From Escherichia coli (lineage in GTDB: Bacteria; Pseudomonadota; Gammaproteobacteria; Enterobacterales; Enterobacteriaceae): a stretch of DNA of 64,000 nucleotides. Made by a program: the position numbers. The DNA is taken from assembly GCF_045037415.1 (NCBI RefSeq), contig NZ_CP173438.1. One strand, given 5' to 3'. Shown here piece after piece: positions 45,601 to 54,600 of this stretch (positions within the stretch are counted from its first letter, which is position 1; every line of letters begins with the position of its first letter).

Positions 45601-48600
45601 GCATGCACAGAAATCCCCGTCGCAACAGCCTTTATCAGAAAACCATCTTTTTACCGGTCTATGGTGTTGCAGAGATATTTAATACTGACGCCGCGCATAC
45701 CATTTTTCTCCATCGCATTGTAAAGATGCGCACATACCGTCTTCATGGTTATCCCCAGCCGGTCTGCCAGAAAGGTAAACCCGTAGTCATGGAAAACAAC
45801 CCCGAAGACCACCACCATCTCTGTCCGGGTCAGTGGCCTTGCCGTATGTCCGAACAGCCACGCTCCACGGCGGATGGTTTGCCTGATATCTGTCAGGCAT
45901 CTCACAGAGGAAACAGGAATGACAAGAAACCGACGCCCACAGAACATAGAGTATGTAAGCCTTTCCAGATTACGGTCACAGAGAATCACATAACTGTCTT
46001 CGGGAAGTGACTGACGTTGCTTTCCGGCATTAAACAGCTCTCTGCCTGTCGTGACCTGATATCCGCTCAGTATACGCATCAGGCCATATTCCAGATATCT
46101 GTCCCGGGTCATAATAATAATCAGCATACTCTCTGCCCCTTGTATCCCGGATACCGGCTCCGTTTACCATTACCGGTATAACTGACTTATCATTCATAAC
46201 GGAAACTGTCTGCCGCATACATCAGCGCCCGCTCTTCCAGCTCTGACAGGCTCAGTTCTTTCAGTTCCCCTTCCCCTTCAGCAAGAAGATAACATTCAAA
46301 AACGGCTTCATCGTCGCATTCCAGACGCACCTGCGCCCTGTCAGCCCGACCGTTTACAATAAATAGCTGCACTGACCTTATGCGATAGTTCAGCATATAC
46401 ACTCTTCCTCTCAGATCTTCAGGAATACCCGGGAACAGTCAGTTATGCCATCGGGGAGAAAAACAGGCAGCGAATCATTACTTCATACCGAAAACTGCCT
46501 CCCCGGTGACTCAGGCCCGGGTTCAGAACTACCAGTTGACACCCACATTCCAGGAAACATAGCCGCCACTGAAAGTAGTACCTGCCTTTAAGCAGTCTGC
46601 TTGGCACTATACCCGCCCACAGCCGCTATGGCGTTAAATTTATCCTCACTGTACGGCTCCCGCTTCATTTCCTCGTGATTCTCATTAATCAGCCCTGCTG
46701 ACTGTTCAGACGCTCCGCATGCATCTCCAGCACCTCTCCCGGGGAAAGCAGCCCCCGGGTGTTACGGTTTATGGCCACCGTGTTCCGGATGATATTCTCC
46801 CTGTTCTCTGCAGCGACCGTATCTGTATGGTCACACGCCTTAAGCACTTATGCTGTAATCCGTCCACTGATGCCACTGTACACCTCATCCGTCAGCGGGT
46901 TCAGTTGCCTGATAGTGGCTGCTTCCGTATCCCATGCACCATCACTGATACCACCGGGACCCCGGATTTTATCCGGTCCCCGCGGACTGACAGGGTTTGT
47001 GACACCTGAGTCATATCTGATGTAAACTTCATTTTCACGGGTTGTACAGGAAAACTCCCCCTGTGCCATTGAATTCTGATGTGTGCCCTTCGCCACAACT
47101 CCCACCGTCACGGCACCAGTTGCATCTGACGCCGACCAACTGCTGAGAGCCATGCCGTTTCCGGCTTTGTCGACAACGCATGCTGCAGTTCCCAGCGATG
47201 CGAACTGGTCTGGCATGCATTCACGAACCAACAGCAGTGGTGCTACGTCCGGATGCAATTCGCATGAGCTCCAACCGCGGTTGTAAGTTCAGCAGCCCGG
47301 GCCTCTGCCCCCGGCACAGTCGCATAAGTATTCGATACCGTGCGACACCATTACCTTCAGGATACGCCACGGACCCGTCACCCTACGAAAACGCCGGAAC
47401 ACCGGCAATCAGCAAAGGCAGCAGTGATAAAAGACTGATATATTTCCTGTCATTATTTTTCATATTAATTTAACTCCTGATTAACCGGTTTTTATTGATA
47501 TGAGAAAGTAATAGTTGCAATAGCCTTCACACTTCCAGGTGTAGTTGCATCAGCAATTTTTATATAATTGGCTCTTAAATTGATATGTGGATTTACCTCT
47601 CCCCTGTAATCGGAGAAGTGCCATTGACTGCCATTTCCTTTCACAGGGGAGTCTTCACCATAGCTGATGGCAGTTACATCACTGTCTTTATATAGCCTGA
47701 TGCCAAATCCTTTTGCAGTGGATTCACTGCTTAAGGTCAATATATCTGTTCTGTTCACTGGCTGTGATGCATCTGTCAATGTAGCATAAACATCAATTCC
47801 ATCCGGGCATTGTAGGTGTATGTCAATTTTACCTCCCTGTATTTCTTTATACAAAGATGTGAACTGTGATTGATATACGGTATTTAATGGCACCACATAG
47901 TTTTTTTGCCCCATGGTACATGTCTGACTCTGTACCTGAATGCGCCCACCATTTAACATAACAGGTGCTGTCAGTCCTTTATTATTTAAACTTGTACGTT
48001 TTGCTTCCAACAAAATAGTACCAAGCTGCCTGGTGGGTATTGTTATATATCCATTGGGTAATCTTCCCGTTGCGACAAAAGCAACAAACAAACGAGCTCC
48101 GAAGCTTGCTGTCGCACCGTTATAAGTATTGGGGTTTGTATTGGCACCTACAGGGTCAATATATATACCTGAGCTATTTATGGGGACCAGAGGCGTTGCG
48201 GGCCAATAGCCCGCCATGCCAATAATAATACCCAGTCCGGATACACCAATATCATAGATATCAAAATCAGATGAATCACGGCTGTTTCCTTGATGGAAAG
48301 TATACGTAATACTTCCAATTTTAGGCAGTGCGGGTGTAAACTTTCCACGCATCAGAGCGATGGCACCGCCATTAAAAACATACTGGTTACTTGTTCCCGC
48401 CAGCTCTCCTATCACCCGGGGATAGGTATGGGCATCAGCAGGACCAATCACAACACCTGGCAATGTGGATGTATTAACCGCTATCTGCGAAGGCACATAA
48501 TCATCCGGACCCGCTACCGCCAGCTTAGGGAGTAAAATTAAAAACAATGGTATGAAAAAGATTCTTTTCATGTTTTTTCCTGATTAGGGTGCTGTATACA

Positions 48601-51600: not shown

Positions 51601-54600
51601 GAAATATTGGCGGAGTAATGATAAAAGGAACGTGGACTGACTCAGGGGGAGCTGCTGCATCTCCATCGTCTAACCAGGACTGGACTAATGCCGGAGATTC
51701 ATTGTCATTATTTAAACGTATGCTAATACTCTTTTGAGTCGCCGGATAAACAACACGGGTTCCCATGATAACTACACTACCCTGAACAACTGCAGATACA
51801 GATAGAGTAAAAAAAAACAGCACAAACCTTAGCATGGTATCTCCAGAAGAAAACAGGGCAGTATTTCCTGCCCAGAAATACAAAAGAGTAAAAAGTTTTT
51901 TATTCGTAGGCAATGGTATAATGGACCGTCGCTTTTACATCCCCTGCGGTAGATTGTCCTGTTGCATAATACTGGGCCATATAACGCAATGTGGCACTTC
52001 CATCAGATCCGATTGTCTCAGACTGGACATCTTGCCCATTATCCGCTTCCCCCAAAAGAATAGTTGAAGTTCCATTACTATTTAGCAACTGAATCTGTAC
52101 ATTATCCGCTTTAGTTGGAGTAGCAGTATTTTTTAAATTATGTGTAGCTAAGTCAATGTTACTTGAAGGCTCAAAGTACGCTTTAACATTCTGAGCACTA
52201 TTCATACCAGTTGCACAACCAGTTAAACGAATGGCAAAGGGTGTCAGCCCTGACGTAGCAGCATTGTCTTTTAGAGATGAAGTGGCAACAGTGGGTAAAG
52301 TTACTGCTAAGTCTTTGTCGCTTGTATTAACTGTGCAGGTCTGAGCTACAACTTTACCGGTAAACGTAATTGTTCCGTCATAGGCCATAGCTGAACCAGC
52401 AAACACAGCAGAAACAAATGTAGCCAATGCTATAACTTTTATTTTCATAAAATGAATTCCTGTTTAATTCCAGTATTGATCATTTGTTCAGCAATCATCC
52501 CCAACAAAACAATCATTTTCAAAATGTTTTTACCGATCGATAACCAGCGTATGATAGATTGCACCTATCATGATTGCTAAAACGATCGGGAAAAACGATC
52601 AAAAACCATATTTATTGTGTTGGTAATGACAAAAGATATGCTTTACCCTGAAATGAGCGACCTATTCATGAAAATATGTAGGTCTGTATTTGATTACTAT
52701 CATTGCTATATTTCCACTATCCAATTTATATTTCATGATTAAAATATACCTTTTTACACTATTATTTATTTGTTGCAGCTTGCCTGGCTTTATCTTATTC
52801 CGACTATTTTATGGTAGATACAGAATACAATTAATTAAACTTATTTAAAGATTTTATAAATACCATATTGGAGTTGACCGATAGATACCTACTAACAAGA
52901 GCAATCACCACCACCCCATGAGGTGGTTTAGGAATACAATCAATAAACAACATCCATGCCCGGCGACGTACATACCTGTTTGCTATGATATCTGTTACGC
53001 TACGCTTGCTAATTTACTGAAACTCAGCGTCTGTCGACGGAGATTCGTCCGGGCCCTGATACAACAAGGGCAAGAAAACCACCCGAAATACAGATATTCT
53101 TATAAAAATGGATCATATTTCCATGTGCAAGTTCAGCTGGCATCGTCCAGAATGCGTGTCCAAGAAATGAAGCAAGCACGGTATACAGGCACAGAATAAT
53201 GCTCACTGGCCGGGTGAAAAAACCAAAAACAATCATTAATGCTCCAACGATTTCGACAAGGACCACTATTGCTGCAGTAATCGCCGGAAATATAAGCCCA
53301 AGAGAGGCCATTTTATCGATAGTGCCAGTGAATGATAGCAGCTTGGGAACGCCGGATATCATATAAAGGCATGCCAGCATCAGACGGGCAAGGAGCAACA
53401 ATGCCGACGTGTAATTTCCCATATTAAAATACCTGATTTTATCCACTATCAATGCTCAGTCTCCTTGTTTCTGATAAAGCCCTGAGCCAAATCCTTAAGT
53501 GTACGAGCACCACTCAGTAACATTGCCGTCCTCAGTTCCGTCTTCAGGTGCTCAATGACACCGGCAACGCCCCCGACACCACCTGCTGCGATGCCATAAA
53601 GAACAGGACGTCCGACCGCAACAGCCGTTGCCCCAAGAGAGATAGCCCTTACAACATCAATCCCCCTGCGAATACCGCTGTCAAAAATGACCGGAACTTT
53701 GTGCCCGACTCTTGCAGCAACTTCCTGCAACTGGCTGATGGCAGAAGGAACACCATCAATCTGGCGACCACCATGATTAGACACCTGGATGGCATCTGCT
53801 CCTGCATCAATGGCAACCACTGCATCCTCACCCCTGAGGATGCCCTTGACAATGACTGGCAGCCCGGTGATTTTTTTTACAAACTCAATATCAGCCGGGG
53901 TCAGCTCAACTTTTTGGTTAAAAAAATCACCTTTGCCACCGTAACGGGGGTCATGATTACCGAACGTCGCTCCTGCAGGGAAAGGCGAGCTCATGCTGAG
54001 AAAAGCATCACTTGTCCCGGGACCAAGCGCATCCGCTGTGATAATAATGGCTGAATAGCCTGCCGCTTTTGCACGCTCCAGTAAACTTCGGGTCACACCG
54101 GCATCCGCGTTAAAATACAGCTGGAACCATTTAGGTCCTTTACTGGCTTTTGCAATATCCTCCAGAGAGCGGTTGGATGCCCCTGATGATTCATAAAGTG
54201 CCCCGGCCTTTTCTGCACCCGCTGCAGCAATCACCTCCCCTTCCGGATGGACGAACATATGCGCGCCCATAGGTGCTATCAGCAGGGGATGTTCCAGATG
54301 ATGGCCCAAAAGGTCAGTCCGGATATCAATGCTGTGGGCAGCAACTCCACTGAGTCGGTGAGGTAACAAAGGATAATCACTGAATGCCCTGCGGTTCTCA
54401 TGATACGTCCACTCATCTCCAGCACCATGAGCAATATATGCATACGCAGCTTCCGTCATCACATCTTTTGCTGAAGTCTCCAGTCTGTCCAGACTGATGA
54501 TATGAAGAGATTTGTTGGTCGATGTATCAGCATGTCCAGACGTTTTACTGATGATATGTGCCGTTGAAGATGAGATATTTTTGGCAAGGGCCGGTGCAGC

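Follow-up and report, generated by a model that had tools for sequence, protein, structure and literature searches.

The operon and its products

The 64,000-nucleotide stretch of Escherichia coli DNA analysed here (contig NZ_CP173438.1 of assembly GCF_045037415.1; hereafter the window) carries a chaperone-usher pilus operon, uclABCD, preceded by a candidate epigenetic switch. An earlier note on this DNA had described a compact pilin-chaperone-usher-adhesin operon of the F17-like or Ucl type at 47492-52448, and listing of open reading frames (ORFs) bears out this layout: four intact and tightly packed genes, all on the minus strand, fill 52448-47492 exactly. The first gene, uclA (51900..52448), encodes a major pilin of 182 amino acids with Pfam matches to FimA (6e-41) and Fimbrial (1.5e-18). 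It is followed by uclB (51110..51835), which encodes a periplasmic chaperone of 241 amino acids, rightly called PapD-like before, as both PapD_N (5e-43) and PapD_C (7e-17) are found. The third gene, uclC (48568..51102), encodes an outer-membrane usher containing PapC_N (1.8e-36), Usher (9.3e-151) and PapC_C (3.6e-17) domains, and the last, uclD (47492..48571), a two-domain tip adhesin. The sizes given earlier for usher and adhesin, 844 and 359 amino acids, are exact. The uclB gene starts with ATG at 51835, the mechanical ORF beginning earlier, at a TTG, and uclC starts with ATG at 51102. The start of uclD and the stop of uclC overlap by 4 nt.

UclD is made up of a signal peptide (residues 1-20), a lectin domain (residues 21-217; nt 47921-48511) and a pilin domain (residues 218-359). 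Pfam detects a Fimbrial domain at residues 214-359 only, leaving the N-terminal ~200 amino acids without assignment; this C-terminal domain and the solved N-terminal lectin domain described below confirm the two-domain adhesin of the earlier note. The N-terminal hydrophobic leader of UclA ends in A-M-A, giving a signal peptide of about 22 amino acids. The peptide AYDGTITFTGKVV, proposed earlier as the mature pilin N-terminus, is indeed present as UclA residues 22-34; however, the mature protein probably starts one residue later, with YDGTITF, as judged by the -3/-1 rule (cleavage between A-M-A and Y) and by alignment with the F17-A homologue, whose signal stretch has 21 residues. All hallmarks of a classical chaperone-usher system were found, namely a pilin with a signal peptide, both PapD domains, three usher domains and a two-domain adhesin with a C-terminal pilin domain.

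The spacer between uclA and uclB contains a stem-loop followed by a U-rich run (51856..51873, minus strand), a terminator-like site with a minimum free energy of -17.6 kcal/mol (z = -3.1 compared with shuffled sequences). By analogy with other chaperone-usher operons, this hairpin probably serves as an attenuator or mRNA stabiliser that sets an excess of pilin over the assembly proteins. A second terminator-like hairpin after uclD (47392-47407) is no more stable than shuffled sequence (z -0.36).

Identity of the operon and its promoter

The DNA from 47300 to 52700 (5401 bases, including 250 bp of promoter) matches E. coli UTI89 and many further genomes of extraintestinal pathogenic E. coli (ExPEC) with 100% identity. 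In UTI89, RefSeq annotates the same four coding sequences, with a uclB of the same extent. Over residues 21-224, UclD shows no difference from PDB 7MZP ("F17-like fimbril adhesin subunit UclD", in which construct-derived residues follow), and over residues 21-217 none from PDB 5NWP/5VQ5; the next best PDB matches are Proteus UcaD structures. NCBIfam equivalogs did not provide a family name, since the top chaperone and usher matches (NF007398, NF007337) are below their cut-offs and no F17, Ucl or Uca model was returned. Based on the complete DNA identity to UTI89 and the identity of UclD to 7MZP, the interval is uclABCD, encoding the Ucl (Uca-like, formerly 'F17-like') chaperone-usher pili of ExPEC in the exact allele studied in UTI89, an identification to which we give a probability of roughly 97%. 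The operon was named Ucl for its likeness to the uroepithelial cell adhesin (UCA), having previously been annotated as F17-like (PMC9236248; PMC3559732), and among 5426 complete E. coli genomes, 375 carry it, with a chromosomal location in nearly all cases. As such, uclABCD is already known: published work covers its naming, structure determination, tests of mouse gut colonisation and epidemiological surveys.

A consensus scan identified a sigma-70 promoter at 52494..52522 (minus strand), consisting of a -35 element TTGAAA (52522-52517), a 17-nt spacer and a -10 element GATGAT (52499-52494). The published OxyR motif, located at -82 to -66 (PMC9236248), could be placed on GATAGGTGCAATCTATC at 52569-52553, where it forms the dyad GATAG-N7-CTATC (52553..52569, minus strand). 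From this placement we infer that transcription starts near 52487, some 39 nt ahead of uclA; this puts the independently scanned -10 element at -12..-7 and the -35 element at -35..-30. Position -78 then corresponds to 52565 and is a G, the UTI89/ST131 allele. OxyR is known to bind the ucl promoter in electrophoretic mobility shift assays, to activate it and, as seen in oxyR mutants, to be required for its activity (Hancock et al. 2022, PMC9236248). Strain F11, with T at -78, shows higher expression, and G at this position gives lower expression (PMC9236248). The G allele is bound more tightly by OxyR yet is expressed less, and it was stated that "additional cofactors" must exist (Hancock et al., PMC9236248). 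Further, piliated cells made up only 79% or 12% of the population (PMC9236248).

Pilus assembly and receptor binding

From established knowledge of chaperone-usher systems, all four Ucl proteins would be exported via Sec, and UclB would then cap each subunit by donor-strand complementation. The usher UclC would accept UclD first, placing it at the tip, after which UclA would be polymerised by donor-strand exchange. The roles reported for the four proteins are UclA as shaft, UclB as chaperone, UclC as usher and UclD as tip adhesin (PMC9236248). The UclD lectin domain is described as an immunoglobulin-like beta-sandwich of F17G fold; its DE loop is extended, and its binding pocket is not conserved with F17G. 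The identical protein binds fucosylated and sialylated glycans containing Gal-beta-1-4-N-acetylglucosamine (GlcNAc), with sialyllacto-N-fucopentaose VI bound best (PMC9236248).

Ucl pili are described in the literature as promoting biofilm formation, adherence to exfoliated uroepithelial cells and colonisation of the mouse gut, which is in line with the role in gut colonisation proposed by the earlier note. Binding of UclD to colonic epithelium is attributed to Spaulding 2017, as cited in PMC9236248. Nothing speaks against the identification of the operon itself. A 2025 study (PMC11784811) did not reproduce epithelial binding and found UclD bound to luminal contents, not to mucosa, and a uclD mutant localised normally in the gut (PMC11784811). 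In addition, ucl may be largely unexpressed in culture, given the low in vitro expression from G(-78). The binding site of UclD in the gut is disputed (PMC9236248 versus PMC11784811).

A candidate Dam/OxyR switch upstream of uclA

The published OxyR dyad is embedded in a 66-bp module, GATC-N9-GATC-N15-ATAG-N7-CTAT-N15-GATC, at 52535..52600 on the minus strand, outside the interval covered by the earlier note. It can be read as a candidate Dam/OxyR epigenetic switch of the gtr type that contains OxyR half-sites A, B and C, of which B is the published dyad; two Dam sites are located in A and one in C. The regulatory region of phage P22 gtr, the type Dam/OxyR phase-variation switch, is GATC-N9-GATC-N16-ATAG-N7-CTAT-N16-GATC-N9-GATC and likewise contains half-sites A, B and C (PMC2909390). 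In gtr, OxyR activates from A and B but represses from B and C, where it overlaps the promoter, and its binding is blocked when GATC is methylated (PMC2909390). When scored against ATAGnTnnnAnCTAT, half-sites A, B and C of ucl reach 7, 10 and 7 of 10 at a spacing of 31/31 bp, compared with 8, 10 and 8 at 32/32 bp in gtr, while half-site C of uca scores 5/10. The three ucl GATC sites occupy window positions 52597-52600, 52584-52587 and 52535-52538. Relative to the inferred start, the GATC sites are found at -113, -100 and -51 in ucl and at -110, -97, -46 and -33 in gtr. The pair in half-site A is 13 bp apart; half-site C has the left-arm GATC only, so that ucl, uca and F17 contain three GATC sites and not the four of gtr.

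The full 20-base pattern matches once in the window, where 0.00 matches are expected by chance. With spacers of N15 or N16, it also precedes a ucl variant of E. coli, the F17 operon, uca of two Proteus species and a fourth, related pilin operon, even though the remaining intergenic sequence of ucl, uca, F17 and the fourth operon does not align. When the ucl and Proteus uca promoters were first aligned, no conservation was seen; the Proteus module is located about 155 nt farther upstream and was found by pattern search only. It is not universal in the family, being absent at one pilin locus 78% identical to UclA. Six E. coli ucl promoter alleles were aligned over window positions 52449-52720, and of the 27 columns that vary, 17 lie within the 66-bp module. 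The 20 defining GATC, ATAG and CTAT bases are the same in all these alleles, compared with variation at 17 of the other 46 module bases (binomial p 2e-5, with the alleles being linked and not independent). Variation is concentrated in hypervariable patches, namely the A-B spacer, the inner 7 nt of the OxyR dyad and the B-C spacer; the alleles are otherwise nearly identical.

We hypothesize that the promoters of ucl and of the related uca and F17 operons are Dam-OxyR epigenetic phase-variation switches of the gtr/opvAB type, a tentative proposal drawn from sequence comparison whose chances we put a little below even. In the ON state, OxyR would occupy half-sites A and B, with GATC1 and GATC2 protected and GATC3 methylated. 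In the OFF state, OxyR would occupy B and C next to the -35 element, with GATC3 protected and GATC1 and GATC2 methylated. Expression of ucl would thus be set by an ON/OFF epigenetic switch rather than by simple OxyR activation, and the hypervariable spacers that distinguish the E. coli alleles could reflect tuning of switching rates. Such a two-state switch would account for the OxyR requirement, for the higher-affinity G(-78) allele expressing less, for the postulated "additional cofactors" and for piliation of only 79% or 12% of cells.

The main alternative is the published one, in which simple activation comes from one OxyR site, the GATC sites around it are a coincidence and there is no Dam-dependent phase variation; this, too, falls just short of an even bet. 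PMC9236248 explains the differences in expression by one single-nucleotide polymorphism in the dyad and never invokes Dam, and the text and supplements of Hancock et al. contain no mention of promoter GATC sites or Dam. The density of GATC sites also fits incidental sites, as it is unremarkable in itself, with three GATC per 100 bp at 10 or more places in the window, and half-site C is weak in both ucl and uca and lacks the fourth GATC of gtr. However, the complete pattern, which alone is non-random, is not expected by chance. It is retained upstream of ucl, uca, F17 and the fourth operon in otherwise non-aligning surroundings, its spacings match those of gtr and its defining bases are invariant within a variable module. 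The paradox of binding and expression and the mixed populations likewise fit a two-state switch. The searchable literature, from which subscription journals are largely absent, yielded no paper describing the module or linking ucl, uca or F17 to Dam. A methylome summary for F11 reports 50 of 40996 GATC positions as unmethylated, with the positions not named.

To assess the breadth of the module, an exact-pattern scan was carried out with one genome per species, and the first ORF on the single-GATC side was classified. The 20-base signature was found at 120 loci or more, and the matches listed are all from Enterobacterales. Among these listed matches, at least 23 precede DUF4755 membrane proteins, at least 14 zinc-ribbon membrane proteins of about 90 amino acids and at least 10 membrane proteins of about 184 amino acids. 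At least 10 more are located before acs genes in Pectobacterium and Brenneria, where the regulated gene may be the divergent one. The remaining classes are 144-amino-acid secreted proteins (at least 8), MrpJ-like helix-turn-helix (HTH) proteins of Proteus, Providencia and Moellerella (at least 8) and fimbrial pilins (at least 3). This distribution suggests a much larger, uncharted set of putative Dam/OxyR switches, mostly before uncharacterised membrane or secreted proteins.

Island context

The operon is part of an island whose left flank reads dcuA-cutA-dsbD-dicD, followed by tRNA-Phe (23646-23721) and an integrase. The cargo then continues with an AAA-domain gene, a phosphoethanolamine transferase, an outer-membrane protein, papX, pap with papG-II, three hypothetical ORFs and ucl, after which DoxX, an FMN-dependent dehydrogenase, a YybH-family gene, TetR and insertion sequence (IS) remnants are found. 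The same cargo is located at tRNA-Leu (leuX) in UTI89 and F11. A near-perfect match to ST131-like genomes such as Ecol_AZ146 extends up to 55128, and in the nearest genomes cnf1 starts about 166 bp past the right end of the window; both cnf1 and hly are outside it. A module of pap, ucl, cnf1 and hly has been described for PAI-IIJ96-like islands of ST131 H30Rx/C2 (PMC9519008). With pap and ucl both present, ucl marks the window as carrying a PAI-IIJ96-like island of an ST131-like ExPEC lineage.

The earlier note had further described an adhesin-rich island by virtue of pap and this operon together. The pap operon is indeed part of the same tRNA-Phe island; however, papC (38789-41319, minus strand) is split into ORFs 39997..41319 and 38789..40090 by a 1-bp deletion at about 40166 relative to Ecol_AZ146, and P pili may therefore not be assembled in the source strain or lineage. 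The exact papC deletion is common to a clonal series of 'Esc' genomes (NZ_OZ3692xx-OZ3694xx).

Damage of this kind raises the question of whether ucl is itself a silent or decaying remnant in the source strain, as several of its island neighbours appear to be. Besides papC, the AAA-domain gene is frameshifted, an IS element interrupts the YybH-family gene, several transposase fragments are present and the ucl promoter allele is of the low-expression type. Against this, none of the four ucl ORFs is truncated, each is identical to its functional counterpart in UTI89, and promoter, OxyR site and ribosome-binding regions are intact, which makes decay of ucl very improbable.

Other observations on the island concern genes outside the operon. 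At the insertion site with tRNA-Phe and integrase (23646-25181), similarity to the UTI89 island starts only at 24835, inside the integrase gene, so the two integrases differ over roughly the initial 900 nt and have their 3' ends in common. The 1171-amino-acid AAA-domain gene next to the integrase (25633-29147, plus strand) is broken into ORFs of 184 and 1050 amino acids through a 1-bp deletion at about 25981 relative to Ecol_AZ146, and a GTP-binding-protein pseudogene has a 1-bp insertion at 33608. The papG-II gene is located at 34637-35647 (minus strand), as annotated in the 99.99%-identical Ecol_AZ146 region, and papG-III occupies the corresponding place in UTI89. An IS3-family element of about 1.25 kb (55127-56376), absent from UTI89 and Ecol_AZ146, truncates the 5' end of the YybH-family gene. 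It contains orfA (55163-55501) and orfB (55528-56346) between imperfect 27-nt terminal inverted repeats, and we take it to resemble IS911.

Downstream of uclD, three conserved hypothetical ORFs are found at 45651-47258 (minus strand). One of these, encoding 158 amino acids (45651-46127), has a sub-threshold Pfam match to a GerE/LuxR HTH domain (E 0.003) and is not similar to LuxR-like proteins that follow the module at other loci. The other two are without family matches and are located in a region of unusually strong negative GC skew (-0.22 at 46-47 kb). The 101-amino-acid ORF at 46848-47153 was considered as a homologue of UcaJ/MrpJ and ruled out, as it has neither similarity to these proteins nor a Pfam match. 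Rfam searches returned a match to AS-pc02, an antisense RNA known from plasmid pHK01, between papI and a hypothetical gene (43883-44059, plus strand; 56.8 bits, gathering score 40). A Guanidine-II (mini-ykkC) riboswitch match (9729-9775, minus strand; 49.3 bits) was found in the core-genome part of the window.

Relationship to Uca and F17

All four proteins were compared by BLASTP with those of one Proteus uca operon and one E. coli F17 operon. The pilin UclA shares 67% amino acid identity with its Uca counterpart (72% with P. mirabilis UcaA) and 59% with F17-A. For the chaperone UclB, identity is 73% to UcaB and 57% to the F17 chaperone, and for the usher UclC 80% to UcaC and 59% to the F17 usher. 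The adhesin UclD is 79% identical to UcaD over its full length and 45% identical to F17G in the pilin domain only. The best matches on protein comparison are thus not to a fimbrial family lacking F17 or Ucl similarity. The assignment to an F17-like/Ucl type stands in so far as the operon is identical to uclABCD of UTI89; by sequence, all four proteins are nearer to Uca than to F17, making the system Uca-like first and F17-like second.

The lectin domain of UclD has no Pfam match to PF09222, whereas F17G has one, BLASTP against F17G gave nothing better than E = 0.09, and phmmer of UclD against the PDB returned no F17G chain at E<=1. The 'F17-like' character of the UclD lectin domain is confined to its reported fold. 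According to the literature, none of the F17G residues lining the GlcNAc pocket is conserved in UclD, and its pocket excludes N-acetyl sugars. A true F17 (F17A/D/C/G) operon of the ruminant enterotoxigenic E. coli type, with an adhesin that binds GlcNAc, is refuted at the sequence level by the missing PF09222 match, the absent lectin similarity to F17G, the unconserved pocket and the closeness of all four proteins to Uca, and has only a negligible chance.

Implications

The presence of uclABCD, as first written down for this DNA, adds nothing new. Useful additions are the allele calls, namely the low-expression G(-78) promoter, papG-II and the frameshifted papC. The promoter module provides a specific, testable hypothesis for heterogeneous Ucl expression. 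If it is correct, Ucl would be the first E. coli chaperone-usher pilus under the control of Dam with OxyR and not Lrp/PapI, and a regulatory device known from lipopolysaccharide (LPS) modification would extend to pili. A target of anti-adhesion strategies would then be phase-variable, which would affect how such strategies against gut reservoirs are evaluated.

Comparison with known systems

The closest known system is Ucl of UTI89 and F11 (Wurpel 2013/2016; Spaulding 2017; Hancock 2022). The DNA of the whole operon is identical to that of UTI89, including the G(-78) allele, and the island cargo is the same, with pap close by and cnf1 just outside the window in the nearest genomes. The systems differ in that the island is inserted at tRNA-Leu (leuX) there and at tRNA-Phe by dicD-dsbD here, and in that UTI89 carries papG-III and the window papG-II.

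Uca (uroepithelial cell adhesin, NAF), encoded by ucaABCD of Proteus mirabilis, shares the four-gene order and similar protein sizes (181/241/844/360 amino acids). The similarity takes in the lectin domain, and a GATC/OxyR module is found upstream here as well. Uca belongs to another genus, its module is about 155 nt farther from the start codon and ucaD is followed by an MrpJ-type HTH gene, whereas the ORF downstream of uclD is without similarity to such a gene. Glycan specificities of Uca and Ucl also differ (PMC9236248). F17/G fimbriae (F17A, F17D, F17C, F17G/GafD) of bovine and ovine pathogenic E. coli have the gene order and the upstream GATC/OxyR module in common with Ucl, and their lectin fold is described as related. 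In contrast, their lectin domain is unrelated in sequence to that of UclD, which has an extended DE loop and does not bind GlcNAc.

For the proposed switch, the systems to compare are gtr of phage P22 and Salmonella (Broadbent 2010, PMC2909390) and opvAB (Cota 2015, PMC4856963). As in these, the ucl module has a central ATAG-N7-CTAT half-site flanked at ~31-32 bp by ATCG..CGAT-type half-sites that hold GATC, the spacing from GATC1 to GATC2 is 13 bp, the module ends beside the -35 element and OxyR is needed for full expression. The differences from gtr are its N16 spacers and four GATC sites, compared with 15-nt spacers and three GATC sites in ucl. Finally, gtr and opvAB control LPS modification, whereas the switch predicted here from sequence alone would control a pilus operon.

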